64,000 bases of DNA from an uncultured Verrucomicrobiales bacterium (lineage in GTDB: Bacteria > Verrucomicrobiota > Verrucomicrobiia > Verrucomicrobiales > Akkermansiaceae): contig CAYXEC010000003.1 in NCBI GenBank assembly GCA_964463855.1, positions 6,452-70,451 on the forward strand, written 5' to 3'. How positions within the stretch are numbered: the first letter of the stretch is position 1; every line of letters begins with the position of its first letter. The notes under the pieces were generated by a model, which did no database searches, was not told the origin of the DNA, and saw only the letters and a list, made by a program, of their open reading frames with translations. Shown here piece after piece: positions 4,145 to 50,717 of the stretch. Both the position numbers and the translations under genes were made by a program.

Positions 4145-4807
4145 GTGTCGCGCCTACTCTTATTTGATATAGACTGCACCCTGATCGATACGGGGGGTGC
4201 TGGTATGGCTGCCCTCAAAGAAGCAGCACATGAATTGTTTGGTGCCGAGGGTCCTGAATTGGATCTTGCAGGAAGCACGGACTCAGGGATTGTGCGTGGA
4301 ATGCTCGAGCATTTCGGCAGTGACTTGAAGCTGGAGGATTTCTACCAGGTTTATCTCCAGAGACTATCTCCCAATCTTAAATCGTTTGCCGGCACCATAT
4401 TGCCTGGGGTCACGAGCCTGTTGGATGAGATGGCAAAGTCTGATGCTACTCTGGCATTACTCACGGGGAATATTGCACATGGGGCCAAGGCAAAAATTGA
4501 TCACTACGGGCTCGACGAGTATTTCTCGATACAGGTTGGCGCCTACGGAGACGATCACCATGACAGAAATCTCCTTGGGCCTGTGGCGCTGGAGCGCGCC
4601 AGCTCAATTCATGGATTTGCATTCGAGGCAAAGAACTCGGTAGTCATCGGTGACACCCCCAAGGACATTGCCTGTGGTCAGGCAATGGGAGCCGCGACCC
4701 TGGCGGTTGCCACAGGGCGGTTTTCGGTCGAGGAGCTCAATCGCTGCGGAGCTGATCTGGCCGTGGAAGATCTGTGTGATCCACGAGTCGGATCATTTTT
4801 GAAGTAG
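4145..4807 (+). CDS. HAD-superfamily hydrolase (phosphoglycolate-phosphatase-like)
   Basis: 220 aa. HAD motif I is LFDIDCTLIDTGG. Also has LLTGN and a GDTPKDI motif. Confidence 0.8.
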   Translation: MSRLLLFDIDCTLIDTGGAGMAALKEAAHELFGAEGPELDLAGSTDSGIVRGMLEHFGSDLKLEDFYQVYLQRLSPNLKSFAGTILPGVTSLLDEMAKSDATLALLTGNIAHGAKAKIDHYGLDEYFSIQVGAYGDDHHDRNLLGPVALERASSIHGFAFEAKNSVVIGDTPKDIACGQAMGAATLAVATGRFSVEELNRCGADLAVEDLCDPRVGSFLK

Positions 4808-4834
4808 GCAGCTGCTGCTCCCGGTGCAAATAGA

Positions 4835-4858
4835 AAGGCACGGCGGTTGCCGTGCCTT
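4835..4858. terminator. bidirectional stem-loop between convergent genes
   Basis: Perfect 10-bp stem AAGGCACGGC / GCCGTGCCTT with a 4-nt loop, lying between the HAD stop (4807) and the HMA-protein stop (4881). T-rich runs follow on both strands. Confidence 0.6.
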
Positions 4859-4880
4859 GATCTTTCAGGTTGCAAATGGA

Positions 4881-5213
4881 TTACTTCTCAACCGAAGCCC
4901 CGTAGCCGGCAGCTTTGACCGCTTTGACAAGATCCTCTTCTGAGACGCTGCTTTTGGCGGTGACCACGGCTGAGTCGGGCATACTCACGGATGCACTGGT
5001 AACTCCCTCAACCCCTTCAAGTGCAGACCGCACTTTATTTACACAGCCAACACCTCATGTCATGCCTGTGATTTTAAGGTTTAGAGTTTTCGTCTCCTCA
5101 TCCTCTGCTTTGATATCCACAGGTGTGATGCTTGTTGCCTGTGCTGCATTAACAGCGCCAAGCGGCAGTGCCGCGAGAGCACCGAGTGTTATAAGTGTAT
5201 GAATTGGTTTCAT
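4881..5213 (-). CDS. exported heavy-metal-associated (MerP/CopZ-like) protein with in-frame TGA at the first metal-binding Cys; probable selenoprotein
   Basis: Starts at ATG 5213-5211 with signal peptide MKPIHTLITLGALAALPLGAVNA, then ...TLNLKITGMT-[TGA 5057-5055]-GVGCVNKVRSALEGVEGVTSASVSMPDSAVVTAKSSVSEEDLVKAVKAAGYGASVEK, ending at TAA 4883-4881. The same frame continues as an intact HMA fold for 57 codons after the TGA. Confidence 0.7.
5019..5035 (-). promoter_or_regulatory. candidate bacterial SECIS hairpin
   Basis: On the mRNA this reads AAGUGC-GGUCU-GCACUU: a 6-bp stem whose apical loop begins GGU. The stem starts 19 nt 3' of the UGA. Confidence 0.5.
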
Positions 5214-5366
5214 TTTTATACTCTGGTTTGGATTGTAGGAATCTAATGATTCCCCCTGCATGCGTAATAGAACGCGTACAATATAGCACACCCGGCATCA
5301 TTTCCCATCCTTGATAACGGGAAAATTTTTGATCTGCTGCCGGATTTTTCCGGGCACAGGGGATAT

Positions 5367-6635
5367 TTAGCACTTTTGGGCAATCGCGCACCCGGCCAGG
5401 TGTCCTGTGGTCCAGGCATTCTGAAAATTGAAACCACCTGTAATGCCGTCGATGTTGAGGACTTCACCTGCGAAATAAAGGCCGGGGGTGATTTTGCTCT
5501 GCATGGTCTTCATGTTCACGTCATCGAGTTTAACGCCACCACATGTAACAAACTCATCTTTGTTCATGCTTTTTCCAATCACTTGAAACTTGCCAGAGAC
5601 AAGCTCCCTGGTGAGGTGCTCGCTTTCCTCCCGGCCAAGCTGTGACCAGGTGCATTCATCCGCGATGCCGGCTGCAGTGCACAAACGTCGCCACAGACGT
5701 TTGGGGAAGTGTTCGAATGGGGATCTGCTGCAGACCATACGCTTGCCATGCTTGCGGCGCGCTTCCTTAAGAACTTCGGGCACGTTTTCTTCGGGCAGCC
5801 AATCAATAGTGATACTGCAATGGTAAGCGAGTTCGTTGAGCTCGCGCGCCCCCCAGGCAGAGAGCCTGAGAATACCCGGCCCGCTCAGGCCATGGTGCGT
5901 GATGAGCAAGGGGCCGCTTGCCTTGAGCTTGATGTCATCAAGAGAGACCAGCGCGTTGGCGACACTTACCCCCTGAAGAGAAGCGATGCGCCCATCCTCG
6001 ATGTTAAAGGCAAATAAAGAGGGGACATTGGCAATGAGCTTATGGCCAAGTGCCATGGCCAGACGCGCACCAGAAGCGAGACGGGTTCCTCCCGTGGCCA
6101 GAAGAACACACCGGGTTTTAATGGTTTCTTTGGTATTGGTCCTGAGAGTGAATATCGTACTCTCAGCCGGATCATGAGGGTGATCAGAGGCTACAGAATC
6201 AACCGTGGTTGATGTCTGGATAACAATGCCGGATTTCTGCGCGGAGCCCTGAAGGCAGTCAACTATGGTCTGGGAATTGTCTGTGGTGGGAAACATACGG
6301 CCATCAGCCTCGGTCTTGAGTTCAACACCATGATCCCGGAACCAGTTCACCGTGTCCAAAGCTCCCCAGTGATGAAATGGGCCTATCAACGATTTGCTGC
6401 CACGCGGATAGTGCTCGGTGAGGGTTTTTGCCTCAAAGCATGCATGAGTGACGTTGCAGCGGCCTCCACCAGAAATTTTGACCTTGCCCAGGGTCTGTGC
6501 TGTTTTTTCAAGAATGAGTATGCGCGCTCCGGGAGCCGCCTCCGCACAGCTGATCGCAGCAAAGAAGCCAGCCGCACCGCCGCCTATGACTACCAGGTCC
6601 CAGGGATCAGGCTCAGACATCTTCCTCAAGCTCAA
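5367..6635 (-). CDS. HI0933/YhiN-family FAD-dependent flavoprotein
   Basis: DLVVIGGGAAGFFAA dinucleotide-binding motif, GKVKISGGGRCNVTH and a C-terminal YFAGEVLNIDGITGGFNFQ. The true start is probably the internal Met at 6620 (MSEPDPW). Confidence 0.85.
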   Translation of the reverse strand: MSLRKMSEPDPWDLVVIGGGAAGFFAAISCAEAAPGARILILEKTAQTLGKVKISGGGRCNVTHACFEAKTLTEHYPRGSKSLIGPFHHWGALDTVNWFRDHGVELKTEADGRMFPTTDNSQTIVDCLQGSAQKSGIVIQTSTTVDSVASDHPHDPAESTIFTLRTNTKETIKTRCVLLATGGTRLASGARLAMALGHKLIANVPSLFAFNIEDGRIASLQGVSVANALVSLDDIKLKASGPLLITHHGLSGPGILRLSAWGARELNELAYHCSITIDWLPEENVPEVLKEARRKHGKRMVCSRSPFEHFPKRLWRRLCTAAGIADECTWSQLGREESEHLTRELVSGKFQVIGKSMNKDEFVTCGGVKLDDVNMKTMQSKITPGLYFAGEVLNIDGITGGFNFQNAWTTGHLAGCAIAQKC

Positions 6636-12968: not shown

Positions 12969-15900
12969 TTAGCTGGTTCGTTTCCTTTCCTGCCACGCGC
13001 AAAAGAGCACGGGCACGACAAACATGGTGAGTAGCTCAAACACCATGCCGCCGAAAATGGGGACCGCCATCGGCCCCATAATGTCCGCCCCCCTGCCTGT
13101 CGAGGTAAGCACAGGTAATAAAGCCAGCAGGGTAGTGGCCGTGGTCATCAGGCATGGCCGGCAGCGACGTTGACCTGCTGAGATGGTTGCCAGGCGGATT
13201 TCAGCAAGTGTTTGCGGGTTCTTCTGCGCAAAGCACTGGCGCAGGTAGGTCGAAATCACCACCCCGTCATCAGTTGCAATGCCAAACAGCGCGATAAAGC
13301 CCACCCAGATTGCGGTGGATAGGTTGACCGGACCAATATTGAACAGGGCACGCAGGTTGTGACCAAAGATGTCGACGTTCATAAAACCGGGTTGGCCATA
13401 GAGCCAGAGCAGAACAAAACCACCGGAAAAGGCGACAGCAATACCACTGAAAATGATGAAGGTGTTGACCACGGAACGGTTCTCAAGATACAGAATCAGG
13501 AAAATCGTCATGAGGGCCAGAGGCATGATGAGTAACATCGTTTGTTCAAATTCCAGTGCCGACTGGTAGTTGCCGGCAAACTCATAGTGGATGCCGCCGG
13601 GTCTGTTGAGTTTGCCTGCCTGTTCCTGGGCGGAGAGATAGGCTTGCACTTCCTCGACGACATCAACCTCGGCAAAGCCCTGGTTGGCTCCAAAGGTCAC
13701 ATAGCCCGTGAGGAAAGTGTCCTCACTCTTGATGACCTGCGGCCCGCGCACGTAGTGAATATCAACGACATCGCCCAAGGGGATCTGGGCTCCCTCCATG
13801 GTCCTGACGAGTATTTTCTCAATCGCCTCGATGGAGTCTCGATTCTCGCGGGCGTAGCGCACCAGAACATTGTAGCGCTCACGCCCCTCGACGGTGGTGG
13901 TGACGATCTCGCCGCCGACCGCGGTCTGGATGGTTTTTTGAATGTCGATGACATTGAGACCGTAGCGTTTGGCAGCCTCCCGGTCGGGGTGGATTTCGAG
14001 GTAGGGTTTGCCCACGATGCGGTCTGCGTTAATGCTGGCGATATCGAGGCCCGCAATACCGCTGGCACGCATGTGCTGCTCGAGTTGCAGGCCGAAGTCT
14101 TCCAGCTGATTCAAGTTAGGTGCCTTGATTTTAATGCCCATTGGAGCCCGCATGCCTGTGCGCAGCATGACCAGACGGGTCTCGATAGGCTGCAACTTGG
14201 GAGCGCCGGTTGTGCCCGTGAGCTGCGCAGCGATGCTGATCTCATGCCAGATGTCATCGTTGCTCCTGATGTGGGGGCGCCACTGGCGGAAGGGTTTGCC
14301 GTCTTTGTCAGGGATAAGCATGCCCTGCTTGTCATAGACATAGTCTCCACCATCATCGGTTTTAAACGTCATGATCCTGCCCTTCGCGTCGGAGCGAAAC
14401 TCGGGGGAATAATTGACAATGGTCTCGATCATCGAAATGGGAGCCGGGTCCAGTGCGGACTCGGCCCGGCCGATCTTGCCAACCACCTGGTAGACCTCGG
14501 GAATGGCCGCAATTCTGGCATCAAGAGTGCGCAATGCGTCCGTGGCCTCCTCAATGGAGGCGTGGGGGCTGATGGTGGGCATGACCAGAAACGAGCCCTC
14601 GTCAAGGGATGGCCGGAATTCCTTGCCCAGCCCAGGGAATTTGCGCTCGATATCCTGATAGAGGCGGGTGTTTTGGATAGTCTGGGGCAGCTTGGAGGTG
14701 ACCTCGCCAAAGCCGAGCCAGATACACAGGGCAGTAGCCAGCATCGCAAGGGGTAGACAGAGGAACAGCCCCTTGTGCTCGAGGCACCAGCCCAGGATAC
14801 GGGTATAGCCCAGCTCAAAGCACTTGAAGGTGATGAGCAGGCCGCCGATGATGATTGCAACAAAGAGAAAGTTGGATAGGTTTGCCGATTCCAGCCCGAG
14901 CGGCATCCAGTTTGTTGCCAGCAGCCAGCCCACGACAAGGGCGGTGGCAAGGTTGAGAATCAGGCTGCCTCTTTTTTGTGCCTCGGCAGATAAACGTGGG
15001 TGCAAGACGTGGAGCGTGGCCAGTGCCAGCAGGACAATGGCAAGTGTCGCTGAGAAACCCATTGCGATGCCGGCACTGATGGCTAACAGGGTAGTGATGA
15101 GATGTCTGCGTTTGAGGACAAAAGCTGTTCCGATGACGCGGGTGGATTTGTCGGACTTGAGCCACTTGGGCAGGGTTCCCATAAGGAAGTGGGCAATGGG
15201 CGGGATGATGGTCAGGGCAACCACGATGGAGGCAGCGAGGGCGAGTGACTTGGTGTAGGCCAGCGGGCGGTAGAGCCGGCCCGCCTCGCCGGAGAGAACA
15301 AGCACGGGAAGAAAGCTGACAATGGTGGTCATGACCGACGTGGTGACTGCTCCAGCCACCTCGGTCACCGCCTGGTAAATAACAGTGGATACACTGCTTC
15401 CGGGAGGCGCTTCTTCAATGCGTTTGACGATGTTCTCAGTGAGCACAATGCCCACATCCACAAGGGTGCCGATGGCGATGGCAATGCCGGAAAGAGCGAC
15501 GATGTTGGCATCCACGCCAAAGGCCTTCATGCCAATGAAGGTGATCAGCACTGCCAGGGGCAGCATCGAGGAAATCAGCACACTGCTGCGAAGCTGCAAT
15601 ACCATGATGACGACCACAATGATCGCAACCAGGATCTGCTGGTAGAGTGCTTCATTGAGGGTGTTGAGGGTCTCCGCGATCAGCCCTGAGCGGTCATAAA
15701 AAGGCACGATAGTCACCTTGGAGGTATTCATCCACTGGGGCCACTCGGTACGTTGATGGATTTTACTCCATGCGAGCCACGCATTCTGGTTGATCTCCGC
15801 ACTCGTTGCCGTGTCATCACTGAATGCCGGGGAAATGGCCTGTTGCCGCGCAAACTCCTCCACCTCACGGTGAGTGGTTTTCTCCCAGTCGAGGATGACT

Positions 15901-16898
15901 TTCTCGGGCAGTGAGGCGGAGAGCTCGTCAATCCTGGCCTTCGCATTTTTGATTGTTTGCAGGGGGTTGGCGCCGAAGCGTGCCACCACGATGCCACCCG
16001 CTGCATCGGCACCATTGACATCAATAACGCCACGCCTCATGTCGGGACCGATCTGCACGGTGGCCACCTCGGAGATCGTGACCGGGGTGTTTTCCCGCAC
16101 ATCGACTACTGCATTGCGCAAGTCATCCAGTGAGGTGATGTAGCCGGTGCCCCGGAGGATGTATTCCACCCCGTTGATGGCGAGGTTGCGCGCCCCTGTT
16201 TCACGGTTGCTTTTGCGCACGGCGTTAGCCACCTGCTCCAGGGTGACATTCCATGCCTTCAGCTTGAGTGGATCCACCTCGACCTGGTATTGTTTGACAA
16301 ATCCGCCGACCGAGGAAACCTCGGCGACCCCATCCACACCCAAAAGAGCGTAACGTACATACCAGTCCTGGATCGAACGCAGCTCCTCGGGATTCCATCC
16401 CGGAGCCGGATTGCCGTCGGGGTCCCTGCCCTCAAGGTAATACTGGTAGACCTGCCCCAGGCCGGTGGCATCGGGGCCAAGTGTCGGTGTGACCCCGGCA
16501 GGGAGAAGCCCTGAAGGGAGACTGTTGAGTTTTTCGAGAATGCGGCTGCGGCTCCAGTAATAATCCACGTCCTCCTTGAAAATGAGGTAAACGTAAGACA
16601 GGCCGAACATCGAATAGCTGCGCACTTCCTGGACACCGGGGATCCCGAGCAGCGACACGGTTAGCGGATAGCTCACCTGGTCCTCAACATCCTGGGGCGA
16701 GCGTCCCATGTACTCGGTGAAGACAATTTGCTGGTTGTCACCCAGATCGGGAATGGCATCCACAGCGACCGGATCGCGTGGCAGCTTGCCTGTGTTCCAG
16801 TCAAATGGAGCCACCCTCACCCCCCAGCCGATGGTGAAGGAGAGCAGGATGAGAACCACCAGCTTCTGGTTGAGGCAGAATTCAATGAGCTTTTTCAT
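12969..16898 (-). CDS. heavy-metal efflux RND permease, CusA/CzcA family (unusually long, 1309 aa)
   Basis: The N-terminus MKKLIEFCLNQKLVV..., the porter-domain sequence and the many transmembrane segments are typical of the HME-RND family. Extra hydrophobic and loop segments sit mid-protein. Confidence 0.9.
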   Translation of the reverse strand: MKKLIEFCLNQKLVVLILLSFTIGWGVRVAPFDWNTGKLPRDPVAVDAIPDLGDNQQIVFTEYMGRSPQDVEDQVSYPLTVSLLGIPGVQEVRSYSMFGLSYVYLIFKEDVDYYWSRSRILEKLNSLPSGLLPAGVTPTLGPDATGLGQVYQYYLEGRDPDGNPAPGWNPEELRSIQDWYVRYALLGVDGVAEVSSVGGFVKQYQVEVDPLKLKAWNVTLEQVANAVRKSNRETGARNLAINGVEYILRGTGYITSLDDLRNAVVDVRENTPVTISEVATVQIGPDMRRGVIDVNGADAAGGIVVARFGANPLQTIKNAKARIDELSASLPEKVILDWEKTTHREVEEFARQQAISPAFSDDTATSAEINQNAWLAWSKIHQRTEWPQWMNTSKVTIVPFYDRSGLIAETLNTLNEALYQQILVAIIVVVIMVLQLRSSVLISSMLPLAVLITFIGMKAFGVDANIVALSGIAIAIGTLVDVGIVLTENIVKRIEEAPPGSSVSTVIYQAVTEVAGAVTTSVMTTIVSFLPVLVLSGEAGRLYRPLAYTKSLALAASIVVALTIIPPIAHFLMGTLPKWLKSDKSTRVIGTAFVLKRRHLITTLLAISAGIAMGFSATLAIVLLALATLHVLHPRLSAEAQKRGSLILNLATALVVGWLLATNWMPLGLESANLSNFLFVAIIIGGLLITFKCFELGYTRILGWCLEHKGLFLCLPLAMLATALCIWLGFGEVTSKLPQTIQNTRLYQDIERKFPGLGKEFRPSLDEGSFLVMPTISPHASIEEATDALRTLDARIAAIPEVYQVVGKIGRAESALDPAPISMIETIVNYSPEFRSDAKGRIMTFKTDDGGDYVYDKQGMLIPDKDGKPFRQWRPHIRSNDDIWHEISIAAQLTGTTGAPKLQPIETRLVMLRTGMRAPMGIKIKAPNLNQLEDFGLQLEQHMRASGIAGLDIASINADRIVGKPYLEIHPDREAAKRYGLNVIDIQKTIQTAVGGEIVTTTVEGRERYNVLVRYARENRDSIEAIEKILVRTMEGAQIPLGDVVDIHYVRGPQVIKSEDTFLTGYVTFGANQGFAEVDVVEEVQAYLSAQEQAGKLNRPGGIHYEFAGNYQSALEFEQTMLLIMPLALMTIFLILYLENRSVVNTFIIFSGIAVAFSGGFVLLWLYGQPGFMNVDIFGHNLRALFNIGPVNLSTAIWVGFIALFGIATDDGVVISTYLRQCFAQKNPQTLAEIRLATISAGQRRCRPCLMTTATTLLALLPVLTSTGRGADIMGPMAVPIFGGMVFELLTMFVVPVLFCAWQERKRTS

Positions 16899-16932
16899 GG
16901 GTCAAAGGTCTCGAATGATGTGTGGGCGGGCT

Positions 16933-19197
16933 CTAGTGCTTGTGATCATGCTCGTGCTTATCCCCGGCGGGGGTGGGCGCATCTGCTTTCGACTCGAGGG
17001 AGAGCGTGTCCTTGACAAATCCGCAGGCGTACATGGCACTGCCATAGTAGGGGTTGCGAACTGCCGTGTCCGCAGAGATCCAGTCAGCACCCTTGTCCCC
17101 GTGAGCCATCGGGCAATGAATGACATAAACGTTACCCAGATGATTGAGACCATGCTTGCGGATCAAGGCAATCAGGGAGTCGCTGACGGCTTTGAAGGAT
17201 GTCCTCATCGCGGCAATATCAGCGACCTGGGGGAGTTGTTCTGCTTGAGCTGAGAGCTCTTTGCGGGTGTTATCCCCCGGCAGGCTGGCGATGGCCCGGA
17301 TGAGTTCCGGGGACAGCTTTTGCGCTTTTTCGTAATTATCCTCAGACAGGGCGATGGCGATGGCGAGATAGGCGTCCTTGCTTTGCATGAGAGGCTCAAT
17401 CCATTGGGAGTCCGCCGCAACGGAGGGCAGTGGCTGCCAGGGAAGGCCGAGGTAGCGCCCGGTTTGCTCGACCTGATGGCGCACCATGCCCAGGGTGGAG
17501 AGGTCCATGTGCATGCTCTGAGCCTGGGTGAGGGTGTTGTCGAGCCGCATGGAGAACTCCTTCCACAGTGCCACATCGGCAGCCTGGAGCTGATCGTGTT
17601 GGATGCTTGCCAGGGCTTCCTGCATGGTGATGAGGTGTTGCATGGCACCCCTGCCATGCTCGGCCGATATGGAATGCACAAATTTTCCGTAGGCCCTGAG
17701 CACAGGTGGCCACTGCCCGGTGAGCTGGTCGTCCGCCCTTTTGGCAGACTGTTCCTTGAGGCCGGCGTTGGGGTTCATCATGGAGGGGCGCGCCTTGATC
17801 TGCAGTTCGCTGTCGAGTTTATAGGCCCCCTTGGTCACGACCAATTCACCCTCGTCAAGACCCCGGTTGACGATGAAGTAATTGCCGGTTCTGGGTCCAA
17901 GGACAATTTCCCTGCCTTCAAAGACGGGTTCTTTTTTCCCTTTGTGCCTGACATAAACCACAGCACGTTTGCCTGTTCGCAAGACGGACGAGGCGGGGAT
18001 CAGCAAGGGCTGTGCAGCCGGGTCCAGGCTGTCGACAAAACCGTATTTTTCTGCCGGCACCAGGGAAATGCCACAGATGTCACAGCTTCCCGGTCCTTCC
18101 TTGATAATCTCCGGATGCACCGGGCTGATCCATTTGCCGGCCAGTTCCTCGCTGACCACCTGGCCGTGGAGGTCGATGTCAGCTTGCACGGAAGTGTTGG
18201 CAAACATACCGGGTTTAAGCAGATGATCCTTGTTGTCCACATTGACGCGCACCTTGACCACGCGATGGCGCGCATCCAGAAGGGGATCCACAAAGGCGAT
18301 GCGACCGGTAAAGTTTTTTCCGGGAATGGCCTCGACGGTGAAGCTCACTTTCTGGGCATAACGCAGCCAGGGTAAATCGGACTCGTAGGCCTCCATGTAG
18401 AGCCAGACGGAGTCAAGATTGGCAATGCCGAAGAGGGGATCGCCGACTTTGACATACTGGCCTTCCCTGGCAATGAGCCGGACAATGATCCCGCTCTGGG
18501 GTGCGTTGAGGGTGACGGTCTCATTGGGTGCCGCTCGTTTTTCAATGCTGGCGATTTGCTCATCGGTGAGTTGCAACAGTCTTAGCTTCTCGCGCGCGGC
18601 AGCCAGCAGGCTCTCGTTGATACTCCGGACAGCTGGCGAGGTTTTCTCCCTGCTCGCCGTGGCGGCCTGGATGAGTTCCTCCTGGGCGACATAGAGCTCC
18701 GGGCTGTAGATCTCAGCAATGGCGTCTCCCTTGCTGACAGCCGTGCCGGCGAAATTGGTGTAGAGCCTCTCCAACCTGCCGCCCATCCGGGCTGTGGTGG
18801 TCACAACGGTGCGCTCATCGTAATCAATTTTTCCAAACAGCTCGATATGGATCGAGGCCGGTGCGCGCATGACTGGCGTGACACGTATGTCCAGCAGGGC
18901 CGCGGCATCCTCGCTGATGCTGAGCTCACGCAAAGCCCCGCCCCCGGCACTTGCTTGAAGGGGGACGAGTTCCATATTGCAAATGGGACAGAGACCGGGA
19001 CCCGGTTGCCTGATTTGAGGGTGCATGGAACAGGTCCAGACGCTGGGCGCCTGGGTGGCAGTGCCTGTTTCCACAGATTTTTCATCGGGTGGCAGGGCAA
19101 ACCACCAGCCGGCAAAAAACAGGACGATCGGCAACAGGATGGCTGCCGGTTTTTTAAGCAGGGGTTTCAGAGGGGTTAGAATTTGGGTCGCTTTCAT
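16933..19197 (-). CDS. RND periplasmic adaptor (CusB-like) fused to two Cys-rich metal-binding modules and a DUF3347-like C-terminal domain
   Basis: 754 aa. Two modules (WTCSMHPQIRQPGPGLCPICNMELVP and ISPVHPEIIKEGPGSCDICGISLVP), a membrane-fusion barrel-sandwich core, a C-terminal CPMAHGDKGADWISADTAVRNPYYGSAMYACG and a His-rich tail DKHEHDHKH. Confidence 0.85.
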   Translation of the reverse strand: MKATQILTPLKPLLKKPAAILLPIVLFFAGWWFALPPDEKSVETGTATQAPSVWTCSMHPQIRQPGPGLCPICNMELVPLQASAGGGALRELSISEDAAALLDIRVTPVMRAPASIHIELFGKIDYDERTVVTTTARMGGRLERLYTNFAGTAVSKGDAIAEIYSPELYVAQEELIQAATASREKTSPAVRSINESLLAAAREKLRLLQLTDEQIASIEKRAAPNETVTLNAPQSGIIVRLIAREGQYVKVGDPLFGIANLDSVWLYMEAYESDLPWLRYAQKVSFTVEAIPGKNFTGRIAFVDPLLDARHRVVKVRVNVDNKDHLLKPGMFANTSVQADIDLHGQVVSEELAGKWISPVHPEIIKEGPGSCDICGISLVPAEKYGFVDSLDPAAQPLLIPASSVLRTGKRAVVYVRHKGKKEPVFEGREIVLGPRTGNYFIVNRGLDEGELVVTKGAYKLDSELQIKARPSMMNPNAGLKEQSAKRADDQLTGQWPPVLRAYGKFVHSISAEHGRGAMQHLITMQEALASIQHDQLQAADVALWKEFSMRLDNTLTQAQSMHMDLSTLGMVRHQVEQTGRYLGLPWQPLPSVAADSQWIEPLMQSKDAYLAIAIALSEDNYEKAQKLSPELIRAIASLPGDNTRKELSAQAEQLPQVADIAAMRTSFKAVSDSLIALIRKHGLNHLGNVYVIHCPMAHGDKGADWISADTAVRNPYYGSAMYACGFVKDTLSLESKADAPTPAGDKHEHDHKH

Positions 19198-19215
19198 GGT
19201 TTCTGGTAAAAAAGG

Positions 19216-20532
19216 TTAGTCAATGGCGGCTGCACTCTTCAGGGCGGCCGATGCCTTGCCGAGGGATGCCCGGTTGTTTTCCTGTTGCAGTTCCAAAGTC
19301 AGGAGCAAGCGCCAGGTATCGAGGACATCGACAAAGGAGAGCTCTCCGGCGCTGTAGGATTTGAGTGCCAATTCATGTGCCTTGCGTGCATCGGGAATGA
19401 GGCGTTGATCAAAGAGGGAAATCATCTCCCGTGAGGATCTGGCCCGGAACCAGGCATCCTCGACACGTTGGCGCAGCTCGCTGCGGGAGCTGGCGATGGT
19501 TGCCTGCATTTCGGCAATGCCCGCACTTGCCTCATCGACCCCGGCCCGACGTGAGGCACGCCAGAGGGGGATGTTAAAACCGAGGGTAAACATAGTCTGG
19601 TCGCTACCATCCGCGACCGGAGACAAGCCTGAATCCGACACCCAGGCACGTTGGATTCCGACCATGAGGTCTGGATAGTTTTCCAGCTCGGCTTTGCGTA
19701 GGCGGTGCCTGAAGGCGTCCAGCCGTGCCTGTCCGGAGAGCACGCTTGGATGAGATGATTCGGCCCGGCTGATGAGTGAGTCCAGGCTGTTCTCACTGGG
19801 AATAGAGGAAGCTCTGGGGGAAGGCAGGGCGGATCCCGCCGGGCGATTGAGCAGGGCATTGAGGCTGGCCTGGCTGCTCTGGCTCTGCTGTCTGGCCATG
19901 ATGAGCTCCTTGTCAACGTTGCTGATTTCATTGCCAATTCTGAGCAGGTCGGCCTGGTTGGCCTGGTTGGTCTCGACCCGTTTTTTGACAATGTCCTTGA
20001 TGGCATTGAGCACATCCTTGCTTTCGAGATTGATGCGCAGACTTTGCTGGGCGAGGTAGTGGCTCCACCAGGCCATGCGCACATGTTGAGCCAAGGCAAG
20101 CTTGAGGTTTTCGAGCTCGGCGGAGGCAGCGTCAGCCTCTTTCTGCGCAGCCTGGGCCCTGGCTTTGCGTTTTCCGGGGAAAGGAATGTGTTGTTCCACC
20201 CCGACGATGGTGTCCACTTCTCCGGCAGCCGTCTGGGCCAGATCACCCGCGCTGACGCGGGCCCTGGGATCGGGGAGTGTCTTTTCCTGTGCCACCCGTG
20301 CCTTGAGACGGGTGACTTTTTGCCGTGCCGCATGGAGAGAGGGATGGTGGACAAGCGACAAGGCGACGAGTTCCTCGACACCTGCCTGAGGCGTTATACT
20401 GTAGTCGGACGCCTGGGGGGTGTCCATGGCGGTGGCACCGAGGGGGTTCTGCAGGTGTCTGGCGGAACGATCTGCCTGGCAGGAGATGAGAATCACCGCC
20501 AGCGGGATGGACATGAGTAACCGGAGTTTCAT
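19216..20532 (-). CDS. TolC/CusC-family outer-membrane efflux protein
   Basis: 438 aa with a signal peptide and two repeated alpha-helical/beta-barrel halves. It lies directly upstream of the adaptor and RND genes. Confidence 0.85.
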   Translation of the reverse strand: MKLRLLMSIPLAVILISCQADRSARHLQNPLGATAMDTPQASDYSITPQAGVEELVALSLVHHPSLHAARQKVTRLKARVAQEKTLPDPRARVSAGDLAQTAAGEVDTIVGVEQHIPFPGKRKARAQAAQKEADAASAELENLKLALAQHVRMAWWSHYLAQQSLRINLESKDVLNAIKDIVKKRVETNQANQADLLRIGNEISNVDKELIMARQQSQSSQASLNALLNRPAGSALPSPRASSIPSENSLDSLISRAESSHPSVLSGQARLDAFRHRLRKAELENYPDLMVGIQRAWVSDSGLSPVADGSDQTMFTLGFNIPLWRASRRAGVDEASAGIAEMQATIASSRSELRQRVEDAWFRARSSREMISLFDQRLIPDARKAHELALKSYSAGELSFVDVLDTWRLLLTLELQQENNRASLGKASAALKSAAAID

Positions 20533-21512: not shown

Positions 21513-21610
21513 GCCGGCAAGTGTAGATGGGCTTTGTGTCGATTACCAGAAGGAGTGGAGATTTTTTCCTCGGAGCAAGCCCTGATTCCGGGTTTGATGG
21601 CATTGCACTT

Positions 21611-22483
21611 ATGAAGGCTTTTGTTCTCGCAGCCCGACCCAAAACACTTCCAGCAGCCATTGTGCCCGTATGGATTGGTTGTGTGTTGGCGTATTATCTC
21701 ACCGGTGATTGGGATCCACGGTTGGCACTTTACACCTTTGTGAGTGCCCTGTGGATCCAGATAGCCACCAATTTTTTCAACGATGCCATTGATGCGCAGA
21801 AGGGTGCGGACACTGATGCGCGACTGGGGCCTGTCCGGGTGACAGCCTCCGGTCAACTCTCCACAAAAACCGTCTATGCCGTGGCGGTGTTCTGTTTGAT
21901 CCTGGCTGCCATGTTTGGCTGGGCGCTTGTTTTGGCAAGGGGATGGCCCATGCTCGCCATCGGTATTCCATCTCTCTATCTGGCTTATGGATACACGGGT
22001 GGCCCATTGCCTTTGGCCTACAAAGGGCTGGGCGAGTTGTTTGTGATCCTGTTTTTTGGTTTGGTTGCAGTTACTGGAACGGTTTTTGTGCAAACCGGGC
22101 AATGGTATGCGGAGGCACTGCTCACTGGCTTGGCTGTGGGGTCTTTGTCAGCAGTGCTGATCTCGGTTAATAATCTGCGCGATGTGAACGAGGACCGGGC
22201 CAATTCCAAAAATACCCTCGTGGTAAAGTGGGGTAGAAACGCGGTGCTTAATTTAATTTGTGTAGAGACAATCGTCGCTTACGCCTGTGCCATCTGGCTG
22301 TTCAATGTGGGTTTTACATGGCTTTTCTTTGTGCTTCCACTGGCATTAGGCCTGTGGATTGTATATCAGCTTTGTAAAAATCCTCCCGGATCCTTCTACA
22401 ATAAAATTCTCGCCATGGCAGCCATTCAGCTGGTCCTCTATGCTGTCGCATTTACGGTGAATGCCAGCTTCTCCGGAGCATGA
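21611..22483 (+). CDS. menA: 1,4-dihydroxy-2-naphthoate polyprenyltransferase
   Basis: UbiA-family membrane protein with ARPKTLPAAIVPV, NDAIDAQKGAD and NNLRDVNEDRANSKNTL. The start is set at Met 21611; the longest ORF begins at 21527. Confidence 0.88.
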   Translation: MKAFVLAARPKTLPAAIVPVWIGCVLAYYLTGDWDPRLALYTFVSALWIQIATNFFNDAIDAQKGADTDARLGPVRVTASGQLSTKTVYAVAVFCLILAAMFGWALVLARGWPMLAIGIPSLYLAYGYTGGPLPLAYKGLGELFVILFFGLVAVTGTVFVQTGQWYAEALLTGLAVGSLSAVLISVNNLRDVNEDRANSKNTLVVKWGRNAVLNLICVETIVAYACAIWLFNVGFTWLFFVLPLALGLWIVYQLCKNPPGSFYNKILAMAAIQLVLYAVAFTVNASFSGA

Positions 22484-23448
22484 AAAAACACCTCCATATT
22501 CATCCTTACACACTTGTGAGCAATACGGCTCTCAATGCCCGGTCAGCACGCTGCGAGCATCGAGGGGCCTTGATCCGGGTGGATCATCAGGGGGTGCATG
22601 GATACGGATGTATTCATCCCTGGCCCGAGCTCGGAGATGCCGGGCTTGAGCAGACTTTGTCCATGCTGGGAGAGGGCAAGTTGACTCCACTGAGCCAGCG
22701 CGCATTGTATTGTGCCAAGGTGGATGCCGAGGCGCGTCGCATGGGCGTCTCTCTCTATGACAATCTGGCAATACCGCAAAGTCATGCAACGTTGACGATG
22801 GAAGAGAGGAGTGTCAGCACGGCTGTCGATGCCGGATTTGACATGGTGAAGCTCAAGGTGGGGCGCAAGGTTTCCGAGGAGGTGGACTTCATTCGTACGC
22901 AGGCAAGCCAATTTCCGGATCTCCTGTGGAGGTTGGACTTTAATCACGCGCTTGATGATCAGGGGGTGGAAGCATTTCTGGAAAGTCTGGGTGAAGAGGT
23001 GAGAGATAAGATTGATTTCATCGAGGACGCTTATGAGCCCGGGCAAAGCCCATGGGTCGATGCGCTTGGGCCTTTTGGTGTCCCCATGGCAGTTGACCGT
23101 GAAGTGGAGGACGCCTGTGGTGGTTTTGGTGTGGCTGTGATCAAGCCAGCCATCAATGAGACTGCAGCTGTTTTGAAACGTGCGCTTGAGGATAACAGGC
23201 GGGTTGTCTTCACCAGCTACATGGATCATCCATTGGGTCAGTGTTTTGCCGCATGGGAAGCGGCCAAGGCATGCCGCGAGTTTCCCGGGGTCGTTGATAT
23301 ATGTGGGTTGATTACACATGGTTTGTTCGAACCAGATGCTTTTTCAGAGGCACTGGGGCCACCCGGGCCAGAATTCCATGCGCCCAATGGAACCGGACTT
23401 GGGTTTGATACTTTGTTGGAGAATTTGTCATGGGAACCACTGAGCTGA
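22480..23448 (+). CDS. menC: o-succinylbenzoate synthase (enolase superfamily)
   Basis: 322 aa with VKLKVGR, RLDFNHA and IDFIEDA metal-ligand motifs. Overlaps the menA stop by 4 nt. Confidence 0.8.
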   Translation: MKKHLHIHPYTLVSNTALNARSARCEHRGALIRVDHQGVHGYGCIHPWPELGDAGLEQTLSMLGEGKLTPLSQRALYCAKVDAEARRMGVSLYDNLAIPQSHATLTMEERSVSTAVDAGFDMVKLKVGRKVSEEVDFIRTQASQFPDLLWRLDFNHALDDQGVEAFLESLGEEVRDKIDFIEDAYEPGQSPWVDALGPFGVPMAVDREVEDACGGFGVAVIKPAINETAAVLKRALEDNRRVVFTSYMDHPLGQCFAAWEAAKACREFPGVVDICGLITHGLFEPDAFSEALGPPGPEFHAPNGTGLGFDTLLENLSWEPLS

Positions 23449-24590
23449 TGACCCGGGAGTTCTGGACATCGGATCGGTGTCACGTTCTGGCCAATCCGCG
23501 TGACCCGGTTGCGGCTCAACAGGCTTTGACCATCGGGGCGTGGAGCAAGCATGAGCCGAAGTTGTCAGGGCATGTTTTATTTGCCACCTCCGGGACCATG
23601 GGGGGCAGGAAATGGGCAGCCTTGTCCAGAGAGGCCATTCTCACATCAGCCAGGATGGTGAATGATCATTTGTCTGTAGACCAGAGTGACCACTGGCTAC
23701 TGGCACTACCACATTTTCACGTGGGAGGCATGGGTGTGCTGGCGCGCTCGTATGCGCTGGGTTGTTCTTTGAGCCGGCTATCCGGTCCCTGGAATGCCAT
23801 CCAGTTTCATGCTCTTGTTGAACAACAACATGTCACCCTGAGCTCGTTGGTGCCTACGCAGCTTTTTGATATTGTTGAGGCTGGTTTGAGAGCCCCTGAC
23901 TCGATACGGGCGCTCATAGTTGGTGGTGGGCGTCTCGATGATTGCCTATATGAACAAGCTCTGGCGTATGGCTGGCCTCTGGTAGAGACCTATGGCATGA
24001 CCGAATCGTGCTCGCAGATAGCCACGTCCGATGTTTGCGAGAGAAGTTTGAGATTGCTGCCAGGTTGGCAGACAAAGGTGACAGCCGGTGGACAACTCTG
24101 TATTAAGGGGGGGGCATTGTTGTCAGCTTATGTCACATGCCGTGAGAGTGTCTGCCGTATGCACGATCCCAAGGTGGATGGATGGTTTGAAACAGGAGAC
24201 CTTGTGAATATTGATGCGAACAGGCTGTTGGTAAAAGGCAGGTTGGGCCGTTGCGTCAAGGTGCTGGGCGAGTTGGTCAACCTTGATGATATTGAACATC
24301 AAATCCTTGAGCTGGGAGAGGCTTCCGCCGTGTCACTATACTCCCATGGGGTTTCGGTCATAGCGCTGGAAGATGCCCGCAAGGGCTGCAAGCTGATACT
24401 TTGTGTGCAACAAGATGGTGAGTATTCGGCGTTGCTTGAGAGCTATCATGGAATATGTCATCCCGCGGAGCGCATTGACGAGGTGCTTGTCACGGAAGAA
24501 ATTCCACGTGGCCCGCTTGGTAAAGTGCAGTATTCACGGCTTCAGGAGTGGGCTGCCGGGCAACTTGGCGATAAAGATGAGAAAAAATGA
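23430..24590 (+). CDS. menE: o-succinylbenzoate--CoA ligase (short adenylate-forming enzyme)
   Basis: 386 aa with FATSGTMGGRKW (AMP-binding motif I), ETYGMTE, and the GWFETGD and PRGPLGKV motifs. Overlaps the end of menC. Confidence 0.75.
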   Translation: MGTTELMTREFWTSDRCHVLANPRDPVAAQQALTIGAWSKHEPKLSGHVLFATSGTMGGRKWAALSREAILTSARMVNDHLSVDQSDHWLLALPHFHVGGMGVLARSYALGCSLSRLSGPWNAIQFHALVEQQHVTLSSLVPTQLFDIVEAGLRAPDSIRALIVGGGRLDDCLYEQALAYGWPLVETYGMTESCSQIATSDVCERSLRLLPGWQTKVTAGGQLCIKGGALLSAYVTCRESVCRMHDPKVDGWFETGDLVNIDANRLLVKGRLGRCVKVLGELVNLDDIEHQILELGEASAVSLYSHGVSVIALEDARKGCKLILCVQQDGEYSALLESYHGICHPAERIDEVLVTEEIPRGPLGKVQYSRLQEWAAGQLGDKDEKK

Positions 24591-45039: not shown

Positions 45040-46159
45040 TCAGTTGTCGCGGGTTCTGCCCTTGAGCATGGCTTCGATAAACGGATCCAGATCGCCGTCC
45101 ATGACGGCTGAGATATTGCCAGTTTCCTCTCCCGTACGCAAGTCCTTGACCATTTGATAGGGTTGGAAAACGTATGAGCGGATCTGGCTGCCCCAGCCTA
45201 TTTCTCCCTTGGCGGAATACTCCCGGTCAGCCTCGGCGCGTTGTTTGTCCTCCTCGATCTGATAAAGCTTGGCTCGCAACAATGACCAGGCGTTTTCACG
45301 ATTTCGCAGCTGGCTGCGCTCCTGGGTTGAGCGGATGATAATACCGGTGGGCTTGTGTTTGAGGATCACAGCAGTCTCGACCTTGTTGACATTCTGGCCG
45401 CCGGCACCACCGGAGCGAGCCGTGGTGATTTCCACATCAGATTCAGGAATCTCGATATTGATATCCTTGGATATTTCAGGAGTGACATCAATGGCTGAAA
45501 AAGAGGTGTGTCGCTTGCCGGCAGCATCGAAAGGGGAGATGCGTACAAGGCGGTGAACACCACGCTCGTTTTTGAGATATCCATAGGCATAGGCGCCGTC
45601 GATTTTGAGAGAGGCGGTGCGGCAGCCCGCGCCATCGCCGTCCTGGTAGTCCAGGTTGGTGACAGTGAAGCCCTTGGCTTCTGCCCAGCGGGTATACATG
45701 CGAAGCAGCATTTCCGCCCAGTCACAGGCTTCGGTGCCGCCCGCGCCGGCCTGGATAGTCAGGTAGGCATTGGCACCATCGGTGGGCTTGTCGAGAAGAG
45801 TGATGAGTTCGAATTTATCCAACTCCCTGATGATGGATTTAAACTCATCATTTGCTTCGCGGGCAAACTCAATGTCATCCGCCTCTTTTGCCAGTTCGAT
45901 GACTTCGCCAAGGTTCCCGGAGCGCTCCTCGAGTGCCAGGAAAGGCTTGAGCCGGCCTTTGAGCAGGTTCGCCTCAGCAACGATACTTTGGGCCTTGTCA
46001 GGATCACTCCAGAAATCCGTATCGGCCATTTTGGAGTCAAACTCAGCGAGATTGTTTTCAAGTGCCGGAACGTCAAAGATACCTCCTGAGTTCGGACAGC
46101 CGGCTTTTCAGGGCCCCGGTATCCAGCGCCAGGAGGTCAGCGATATTTTGTTCACTCAT
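45040..46159 (-). CDS. prfB: peptide chain release factor 2 (requires programmed +1 frameshift)
   Basis: ORF0 runs from ATG 46159 as [28 protein letters not shown] to TGA 46075-46073. The +1 frame then continues [22 protein letters not shown]... to the stop at 45040. The SPF and GGQ ([11 protein letters not shown]) motifs are present. Confidence 0.93.
46072..46087 (-). promoter_or_regulatory. RF2 +1 frameshift site
   Basis: AGGAGG UAU CUU UGA C: an internal Shine-Dalgarno-like sequence with the slippery CUU-U before UGA-C, essentially the E. coli prfB motif. Confidence 0.9.
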
Positions 46160-46285
46160 CTGTGGGCGATTCATAGCCGTTGATTTGCAAGATTCAAACC
46201 CCAAATGGCAAAAAGGAGGGGAGATTAAGGATGGAACAATTTATTGTTTTGCATGCACCCCTGTGAATCGAGCATCATTTGGTAG

Positions 46286-50144: not shown

Positions 50145-50717
50145 ATGAAGATTTTGAGGTTCAATTGTCAATCCCATCCCTTTGTTGTGCGTTACTTGGT
50201 GGTCCTTTTGAGTGTGGCTGCGGTTTTTTCCATGACATCATGCGACAAGGTCAGCGAGCTGGCAGGTAAATTGAAGGGTGTGGCGGAAGCCAGTCACACC
50301 ACGGTCGATGAGATGAATCAGGAACAAGCCAAGGCCGTGATCGCCGGCGAGTCAAAATTAGTGATGGTGGAATTTTACACCGATACATGAGGCCCGTGCA
50401 AAAAAATTGCTCCCGTGTTGGAGCGATTGGCGAAGTCAAACCCGAAAAAAGTCCGCATTGTCAAAGTGAATGCAAACCAAAACCGTGAGTGGGCTGCACA
50501 GCAGGGAATTCGTGCTGTGCCAACCATACAGTTTTACCGCAAGGGAGCAAAAGTGCATGAATTTTCAGGAAGCTACCCGGAGCATGTCATTCAGCAGCAG
50601 ATTGACCAGCATTCTCAATCCTGGGGAGCGCAAAAGGATGAAGACGGTAATCCCGTGCAGCCGGCTATCCAGCCCATGCCCAAGAAGTGGCTGCCTCCGG
50701 GGGTCACCGAGGAGTGA
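50145..50717 (+). CDS. exported (lipoprotein-type) thioredoxin with in-frame TGA in the active site (UGPC); probable selenoprotein
   Basis: Track ORFs 50145-50390 and 50415-50717 share one frame and are joined across TGA 50388-50390: ...SKLVMVEFYTDT-[TGA]-GPCKKIAPVLERLAKSNPKKVRIVKVNANQNREWAAQQGIRAVPTIQFYRKGAKVHEFSG. This is a complete Trx fold with the TGA at the first Cys of W/T-C-G-P-C. The N-terminus is LVVLLSVAAVFSMTSC (signal/lipobox-like). Confidence 0.75.
50405..50428 (+). promoter_or_regulatory. candidate bacterial SECIS hairpin
   Basis: AAUUGCUCC-CGUGUU-GGAGCGAUU: a 9-bp stem (one G-U pair) with a 6-nt loop containing GU. The stem begins 14 nt after the UGA. Confidence 0.6.

Follow-up and report, generated by a model that had tools for sequence, protein, structure and literature searches.

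An exported HMA-domain gene with an in-frame TGA

The stretch of DNA analysed here (the window; 64,000 nucleotides, positions 6,452 to 70,451 of contig CAYXEC010000003.1 in assembly GCA_964463855.1, from an uncultured Verrucomicrobiales bacterium of the Akkermansiaceae) carries on its minus strand a small gene for an exported protein with a heavy-metal-associated (HMA) domain, in which an in-frame TGA stands at the place of the first metal-binding cysteine. In minus-strand order, the translation of the window gives ATG (5213–5211), MKPIHTLITLGALAALPLGAVNAAQATSITPVDIKAEDEETKTLNLKITGMT, TGA (5057–5055), GVGCVNKVRSALEGVEGVTSASVSMPDSAVVTAKSSVSEEDLVKAVKAAGYGASVEK, and TAA (4883–4881), and the region 5213–4881 is laid out as a signal peptide, an acidic linker, and the HMA domain. 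Very probably, the UGA is read as selenocysteine (Sec; U in sequence motifs) in place of the first metal-binding Cys of a secreted protein of the MerP/CopZ type. The features of the gene are as follows.

4881–5213, minus strand: complete reading frame of the candidate selenoprotein, 110 codons including the Sec codon, from ATG (5213–5211) to TAA (4883–4881)
5145–5213, minus strand: predicted Sec-type (Sec translocon) signal peptide, MKPIHTLITLGALAALPLGAVNA, containing a single Lys and a hydrophobic core and ending in an AxA-like motif
5055–5057, minus strand: in-frame TGA, codon 53, candidate Sec codon at the first Cys (Cys-1) of GMTCxxC
5043–5045, minus strand: TGT, Cys57, with which helix 1 begins; second ligand position of U-x3-C
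4902–5078, minus strand: HMA domain (Pfam PF00403), residues 46–104, beta-alpha-beta-beta-alpha-beta
5019–5035, minus strand: hairpin AAGUGCG-GUC-UGCACUU, resembling a selenocysteine insertion sequence (SECIS) element, with a stem that begins 19 nt after the UGA
4835–4858, minus strand: intrinsic-terminator-like hairpin, AAGGCACGGCAACCGCCGUGCCUU, with a U-rich tail, 22 nt past the stop codon

The start at 5213 was chosen because the orthologs start there (MKTIQK or MKQIQK) and similarity is lost upstream; a shorter open reading frame (ORF) listed for the window (5055–5291, minus strand) ends at the TGA. An earlier reading of this DNA, made from its letters alone and called here the sequence-only reading, had described the frame, the TGA, and the 57 codons that follow it, which the translation of 5213–4881 confirms. 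It had also predicted a cleavable signal peptide, and this trait proved to be family-wide, since all family members possess either a signal of the signal peptidase I type or a lipobox (LVAC in L120 and L121, ISGC in L122, and MVGC in L094). In the protein of the window, cleavage is likely to occur after VNA or AQA, as predicted from the sequence. A GC-rich hairpin sequence similar to that at 4835–4858 is also found 3′ of the stop codon in orthologs.

Conservation of the TGA and selection on the downstream frame

The gene is identical, TGA included, in five independent assemblies derived from different sequencing runs (L008–L012); the TGA is therefore not a sequencing error, a concern that had been raised with the sequence-only reading. 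The TGA is present in every homolog that covers the site, down to a protein identity of ~44%. The TGA-bearing homologs comprise loci from JGI (L001–L006) and ENA (L007), three metagenome-assembled genomes (MAGs) from GTDB (L013–L015), which were obtained by a scan of species-representative genomes and are labelled Verrucomicrobiota, Verrucomicrobiales, or Akkermansiaceae, and 25 metagenome loci; the metagenome scan found 27 loci, and the TGA is present in 25 of the 25 that cover the site. The sources of the homologs are Verrucomicrobiales/Akkermansiaceae MAGs and marine and soil metagenomes. Around the TGA, 34 loci yield 26 distinct 78-nt sequences, all of which keep it. Three types of match were seen in the initial homolog search: N-terminal ORFs ending in ...GMT, canonical CopZ proteins with CxxC, and a full-length protein, P0001, which has 'W' at the site in the protein and TGA in the DNA, the gene caller having used another genetic code. 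Two further homologs (P0103 and P0133) have the TGA translated as W. In a related species on JGI contigs (identity, 63% in the compared part and 74% over the full protein), the ORF ends at GMT and a separate in-frame 56-residue 'HMA' ORF comes next.

The 57 codons after the TGA were compared by codon position with the window as the reference. The differences at positions 1, 2, and 3 amount to 5, 5, and 29 against L001; 7, 7, and 24 against L007; 11, 15, and 36 against L015; and 18, 18, and 31 against L119. They fall mainly on third positions, a pattern indicating that the frame downstream of the TGA is under purifying selection. The first seven codons past the TGA (G-V-G-C-V-N-K) keep their amino acids while their third bases vary, and none of them is a start codon. 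These codons are therefore reachable only through the TGA, and access by read-through alone in turn excludes a pseudogene and two independent small genes.

HMA fold and the widened metal-binding loop

With U written as C, the Pfam HMA model PF00403 spans the TGA (E = 1.2e-11; 45.2 bits versus a gathering threshold of 24.8). In the AlphaFold model of the ortholog P0001, the domain is composed of strand 43–51, helix 59–68, strands 73–79 and 83–89, helix 94–103, and strand 107–110, with a predicted local distance difference test score (pLDDT) of 83–90, and the signal peptide and linker are disordered. The loop that follows strand 1 contains the Sec position, and helix 1 begins with the Cys. In a Foldseek search of the PDB, the top 30 matches (E ≤ 0.001) were all HMA domains or proteins containing them, the best being HMA7 (3dxs) and MerP (1osd and 1afi); the two MerP structures are the closest solved ones by identity (43–44%; TM, 0.83–0.88), with 43% and a TM of 0.88 for 1osd.

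The protein falls below the cut-offs of all the more specific profiles that it matches. The best NCBIfam match is the CopZ model NF047957 (56.1 bits; cut-off, 85), and the second best is NF041115 (UxxU_metal_bind; 50.5 bits; cut-off, 95). Weaker matches are two other CopZ models, NF033794 (39.7 bits; cut-off, 95) and NF033795 (34.4 bits; cut-off, 91), the MerT/CopZ fusion-like NF045683 (29.9 bits; cut-off, 375), and the MerP equivalog model TIGR02052 (35.6 bits; cut-off, 92.55).

In HMMER alignments with HMA domains of solved structure (ATP7B, CopA, the MerA N-terminus, and MerP), the TGA always falls on Cys-1 of GMTCxxC, as the sequence-only reading had proposed, and Cys occupies this column in all canonical HMA domains compared. 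The loop itself departs from the canonical GMxCxxC, being GMT-U-GVG-C with one extra residue. Because every one of these alignments has to open a one-residue gap in the target ahead of the second Cys, the spacing of three residues between U and C, also noted in that reading, is real. U-x3-C occurs in 24 of the 26 distinct sequences (GVGC, GVSC, GVVC, GASC, DASC, GKSC, PVNC, and AGGC after the U), and U-x2-C in two distant relatives, L094 (GAC) and L095 (VGC). The column of the second ligand is Cys in all 24 x3 sequences, encoded by TGT in 12 and TGC in 12. Exported relatives with Cys at the TGA column and the same x3 spacing were found in an exhaustive search of representatives with P0001, namely P0052 (GMSCEVNC) and P0114 (GMKCGASC; a cluster of six members). 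Since Cys relatives share the spacing, the width of the loop is not caused by Sec; as judged from these alignments, the widened loop is a trait of the subfamily, shared by its Cys forms. Among 120 GMxC...C motifs from 77 other HMA loci, 116 have the x2 spacing; four strings fit x3, and most of these are probably chance matches. A GMTCSMNC string near position 5829 of L040 (a Sedimenticola MAG) could be a Cys-type x3 loop outside the family.

A conserved hairpin downstream of the UGA

The hairpin AAGUGC-GGUCU-GCACUU, which the sequence-only reading had placed 19 nt after the TGA, was located at 5035–5019; its stem has 7 bp if the loop is taken as 3 nt and 6 bp if the loop is taken as GGUCU. Its loop begins with G or GU at ~25 nt from the UGA, and the motif occurs once in the window. 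RNAalifold run on the 24 x3 sequences returned one helix, pairing alignment columns 26–32 with 36–42, which correspond to 5035–5029 and 5025–5019. The hairpin cells are paired in 98.2% of cases, compared with 15–58%, the highest control value being 57.7%, when the partner strand is slid by 1–3 columns. The closing pair is GC in 12, GU in 9, and AU in 3 of the 24 sequences and is never broken, and the outer pair is AU in 19, GC in 2, and other in 3; the observed covariation score was reached by 2 of 500 shuffles.

Codon usage within the hairpin is equally constrained. Lys is AAA in 21/21, Val is GTG in 24/24, Arg is CGG in 21/21, and Ala is GCA in 24/24, so that the synonymous entropy of these codons is 0, as against 0.7–1.8 bits elsewhere in the stretch for codons of Val, Gly, Thr, and Cys (0.9–1.8 for the other Val codons). 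The Ser inside the hairpin is encoded only by TCT or TCC, both of which keep the pairing. In the Cys forms L096 and L097, these positions carry other codons, and the hairpin is missing. From these comparisons, the conservation of the hairpin exceeds what the encoded amino acids would demand, and a pair in it covaries.

In bacterial SECIS elements, the distance from the UGA to the loop is 16–37 nt and the apical loop contains a G. The hairpin is like these elements, exemplified by that of Escherichia coli fdhF, in being a short stem-loop inside the coding sequence soon after the UGA, with G or GU opening the apical loop, and its core UGC-R-G-U-C-U-GCA resembles what we take to be the apical hairpin of E. 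coli fdhF, GGUUGCAGGUCUGCACC. It is unlike them in that its stem has only 6–7 bp, no conserved lower stem was found, and no curated covariance model matches it.

UGA as a stop codon in the window and a second candidate gene

A gene for release factor 2 (RF2), prfB, lies at 45040–46170 on the minus strand. Its long ORF (45040–46029; TIGR00020, 456 bits versus a cut-off of 370) matches the model only from position 31, and just upstream of it, at ~46090–46073, is the +1 frameshift site AGGAGG-TAT-CTT-TGA-C. An autoregulatory site of this kind makes sense only if RF2 reads UGA, and RF2 is therefore taken to do so here. In addition, TGA terminates 14 of the 36 long ORFs of the window. On these two grounds, a genetic code that assigns UGA to Trp or Gly is excluded for the window. 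The HMA gene of L094 itself also terminates at TGA.

The sequence-only reading had pointed to a second gene of the window with TGA at a Cys position:

50145–50717, plus strand: thioredoxin, exported and probably a lipoprotein, with T-U-G-P-C; TGA at 50388–50390

Its sequence runs ...VMVEFYTDT-TGA(50388–50390)-GPCKKIAPVLERL, and the claim held, with the Pfam Thioredoxin model spanning the TGA (E = 3e-25) and an ortholog in Oceaniferula spumae (Verrucomicrobiales; P0169) having Cys at the site (EFYSDTCGPC). Another homolog, P0170, has Arg-Pro at the place of the UGA (TDTRPPC). A 9-bp hairpin, AUUGCUCCC-GUGUUG-GGAGCGAU, follows 17 nt after the UGA. Two unrelated genes within 64 kb, each with UGA on a functional Cys and a hairpin behind it, would be hard to explain without Sec decoding. 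A mechanical scan of the window gave 140 TGA-split ORF pairs, among which only the HMA and thioredoxin genes looked like recoding. A third selenoprotein candidate, an AhpC/Prx protein near thrS with variable called lengths in orthologs, was rejected, as it has Cys (FTGVCTQEFC).

Gene neighbourhood and distant relatives

The gene order thrS–infC–HAD–[HMA]–flavoprotein is the same in the window and in the JGI contigs, and further neighbours are an ABC-F gene and RapA. The flavoprotein, directly upstream of the HMA gene at 5367–6635 (minus strand), is an FAD enzyme of the aminoacetone-oxidase family (TIGR00275, 391 bits). It lacks an export signal, and the intergenic gap between the two genes is ~150 nt. 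In Verrucomicrobiales it is always upstream and on the same strand, whatever lies downstream (orthologous loci L001, L015, L110, L111, and L113).

A three-gene efflux system of the heavy-metal resistance-nodulation-division (RND) type is located at 12969–20532 (minus strand), 8–15 kb away from the HMA gene, and the related JGI contigs show the same synteny. It consists of an unusually long pump of the CusA/CzcA family (1309 aa; 699.6 bits versus a cut-off of 701.45), a 754-aa adaptor with similarity to CusB/CzcB and a C-terminal LIC13259-like part, and an outer-membrane factor. Elsewhere in the window, a menaquinone-type biosynthesis run (21527–24590, plus strand) contains a UbiA-family prenyltransferase, o-succinylbenzoate synthase, and an AMP-binding enzyme.

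The contexts of the distant members are unrelated to one another, and no recurrent metal or redox partner was seen around L119, L120, L122, L124, and L116. In two metagenome loci, L114 (218–2260) and L115 (Ga0213865 and Ga0213863), the Sec-HMA domain stands at the C-terminal end of a modular protein of ~680 residues, which further contains a DUF2231 membrane part, a PSCyt1 'planctomycete cytochrome c' domain with CxxCH, leucine-rich repeats, and a Pro/Ala/Lys-rich linker. The locus L093 (185–679 of Logan contig SRR25760724_694325; P0133) has both the TGA at the Sec position and the hairpin.

Comparison with known metal-binding proteins

The candidate selenoprotein is like MerP in having a single HMA domain behind a cleavable signal peptide, predicted here to lead to the periplasm, and in its GMT-[C/U] metal loop, after which helix 1 opens with a Cys. 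It is unlike MerP in having Sec at Cys-1 and three residues rather than two between the ligands, and in its chromosomal housekeeping context, without merT, merA, or merR nearby, as opposed to a mobile resistance operon. With the cytoplasmic copper chaperones CopZ/Atx1 it shares the fold and the proposed role of a small soluble carrier of soft metals, but CopZ has no signal peptide. CusF is a proposed functional analogue in the periplasm, but is not an HMA protein. The CusA/CzcA-type pump with its CusB/CzcB-like adaptor is ~8 kb away and not in the same operon as the HMA gene.

Whether HMA proteins containing Sec had already been catalogued was left open in the sequence-only reading. They have been, as a P-type ATPase with GMTUSSC and as the NCBIfam models NF041115 and NF045683, none of which accepts the protein of the window. 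In the Global Ocean Sampling (GOS) data, Sec was found in the N-terminal HMA domain of an E1-E2 P-type ATPase (VTGMTUSSCVASVERAL; PMC2398784, Dataset S1), and reviews list a cation-transporting ATPase E1-E2 (UxxC) and the metal-binding protein NF041115 (UxxU) (PMC9312934, PMC13188914). The Sec of the P-type ATPase occupies the identical column, that of Cys-1 in the GMTCxxC of an HMA domain. There, however, the domain is a cytoplasmic part of a large membrane protein and has x2 spacing, whereas the protein of the window is free-standing, exported, and x3. NF041115 and NF045683 likewise represent small HMA-type metal-binding selenoproteins in the NCBI annotation models. Residues 40–108 of the protein match positions 2–71 of the 74-position model NF041115, but this model has two Sec (UxxU), in contrast to the single UGA and U-x3-C found here; NF045683 is fused to MerT, a part that is absent here. 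A 'MerP' selenoprotein family of the GOS data was considered as the same family and rejected, its two reads (HHARTSAPAGTUCQSGVQ...) having no HMA resemblance. In the literature, we found no paper that mentions UxxxC, the exported U-x3-C form, or an HMA-domain selenoprotein of this type, and none that describes selenoproteins of Verrucomicrobia. The replacement of Cys-1 of an HMA domain by Sec is thus already known; what is new is its occurrence in an exported protein, with U-x3-C spacing and a compact SECIS of its own.

Proposed route of synthesis and function

The observation made in the sequence-only reading is confirmed and its interpretation supported, since in the homologs the TGA is kept, the downstream frame is intact and selected, Cys relatives align at the column, and a pair of the hairpin covaries. 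As part of the explanation that we favour as a whole, it is highly likely that the gene is a genuine selenoprotein gene of a marine Verrucomicrobiales (Akkermansiaceae-like) bacterium, and there is good reason to expect that its UGA would be recoded to Sec through the hairpin and its product exported. By the standard bacterial mechanism, SelB with GTP and Sec-tRNA(Sec) would dock on the hairpin at 5035–5019 with the ribosome at the UGA of codon 53, where Sec insertion would compete with RF2. The precursor would be exported via the Sec translocon and its signal peptide cut, to give a mature periplasmic protein of ~85 residues made up of a short acidic tail and one HMA domain with the loop G-M-T-U-G-V-G-C. 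The selenolate of U53 and the thiolate of C57 may then together bind a soft metal such as Cu(I), Hg(II), Ag(I), or Cd(II), and selenium could tighten the binding and keep the site reactive under the oxidising conditions of the periplasm. As to function, we lean towards a periplasmic binder, scavenger, or chaperone of soft metals in the manner of MerP, CopZ, and CusF.

A broader proposal is put forward tentatively. The gene may be the first member to be recognised of a family, as yet uncatalogued, of HMA selenoproteins that are exported (to the periplasm or as lipid-anchored proteins) and have GMT-U-x3-C and a compact SECIS of their own, with Sec as a metal ligand and not as a redox catalyst. 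Under this proposal, and at the same tentative level, the family would be widespread in marine Verrucomicrobiales, present in other environmental bacteria, and split in databases, and the widened loop would tune the Se-metal-S site. The function might be (a) to capture or chaperone Cu(I), Hg(II), or Ag(I) with high affinity in the periplasm, with possible delivery to a pump of the CusCBA type, or (b) selenenylsulfide chemistry of a new kind, carried out on an HMA scaffold.

Several observations weigh against the reading as a metal-binding selenoprotein. As for the decoding machinery, no tRNA-Sec was found by ARAGORN in the window and 23 related loci, and selA, selB, and selD were not found in the window, by Pfam scans that included 20 further ORFs, or in the fetched loci. 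As for the hairpin, shuffled sequences fold as well as the 71-nt stretch alone (z = 0.06), and the fold of minimum energy predicted for the stretch pairs other bases, so that the support for the hairpin is comparative and not thermodynamic. The hairpin is also short, and with five of its seven pairs invariant, true covariation comes from two pairs. The sequence-only reading had considered the hairpin compatible with a bacterial SECIS; in the comparison with covariance models, no Rfam SECIS family matched either 4800–5300 (E up to 10) or the whole window, and the only matches in those runs were a chance snoRNA match and a tRNA-Phe. With regard to function, no mer or cop genes adjoin the HMA gene and no mer gene is among the scanned ORFs of the window; because no metal-resistance genes adjoin, it is the domain itself that argues for a metal-chaperone role. 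The RND pump is the only metal system nearby, and RapA, YebC, and an ABC-F gene lie between it and the HMA gene. Finally, L093 has two more in-frame TGAs in its linker (AANAQ-TGA-KTKKAGQSGSK-TGA-KPAA). All three complete called genes of that contig end in TAA, and the neighbouring gene g2 uses TGG for all 11 of its Trp codons; the extra TGAs may reflect multiple Sec, another kind of read-through, or an assembly error.

The competing explanation that survives best accepts a real Sec-containing exported HMA protein and assigns it a redox role, with U53 and C57 cycling between selenol/thiol and selenenylsulfide as in UxxC selenoproteins of the thioredoxin fold; it might reduce periplasmic disulfides or peroxides or handle selenium or sulfur species. 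Such a role would accord with the catalogued prokaryotic selenoproteins, which are mostly thiol-type oxidoreductases with UxxC/CxxU motifs (PMC2398784), and with the crystallisation of MerP with both Cys oxidised to a disulfide (1osd, 'Oxidized MerP'). The other selenoprotein candidate of the window is an exported thioredoxin, no metal-resistance partner gene adjoins the HMA gene, and L114 and L115 fuse the Sec-HMA domain to a membrane protein with the PSCyt1 CxxCH domain and leucine-rich repeats. The constant position of the gene behind the FAD oxidoreductase in Verrucomicrobiales points in the same direction, but the flavoprotein, lacking an export signal, belongs to another compartment. The fold and the GMT-[U/C] context are, however, those of metal-binding HMA domains, and x3 spacing is unusual for redox CxxC motifs. 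We know of no HMA domain with an oxidoreductase function, which also counts against a redox role, and we regard such a role as unlikely.

It is very improbable that the UGA is read through in some manner other than as Sec, either by a near-cognate tRNA (Trp or Cys, possibly helped by the hairpin) or under genetic code 4 or 25 (Trp or Gly). Read-through of this kind would account for the W called at the codon in P0001, P0103, and P0133, for the two additional TGAs of L093, which lie in a non-conserved linker, and for the lack of Sec machinery among the sequences searched. The use of TGA as a terminator by 14 of the 36 long ORFs and by the L094 HMA gene, the retention of RF2 with its UGA-dependent frameshift site, and the exclusive use of TGG in g2 beside L093 all speak against it. 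Moreover, the UGA falls exactly on the column of a metal-ligand Cys with Cys homologs, which is the signature of Sec, and the second gene of the window has UGA at the catalytic Cys of a thioredoxin. The notion that the TGA is a true stop, in a pseudogene, through a sequencing error, or between two small genes (one for an exported peptide of 52 residues, the other for a peptide of 50 residues that begins with the GTG at 5033), is hardly credible: public annotation does call separate N-terminal and C-terminal ORFs, and the invariant GTG could in principle start translation, but each half alone is an incomplete HMA fold, the TGA is kept in ~26 distinct sequences and in five identical assemblies, the G-V-G-C-V-N-K codons are conserved as protein and synonymously variable without a start codon, and the invariance reaches AAA, CGG, GCA, and a covarying pair, which a start codon cannot explain.

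Public annotation and significance

The favoured reading, a Sec-containing exported HMA protein, bears on existing database records. Public annotation splits the family at the TGA (GenBank MDG1358658.1 and MGB1873390.1 with their relatives; JGI L001–L006). The N-terminal ORFs of 54–68 residues are 'hypothetical protein', and the C-terminal ORFs of 53–56 residues are 'cation transporter [Akkermansiaceae bacterium]' or carry an HMA Pfam match only. As these GenBank names show, annotation pipelines miss the family.

The finding is a variation on a theme described since 2007–2008 and not a new principle. Characterised selenoproteins nearly all use Sec for redox catalysis, and there are few examples of Sec as an apparent metal ligand. 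Being small, soluble, and exported, and occurring naturally with Sec or Cys and with x2 or x3 loops, the domain would be convenient for learning how selenium and loop length affect the affinity and selectivity for soft metals, and a family model with a Sec column would repair dozens of records and extend the selenoproteome of marine Verrucomicrobiales.

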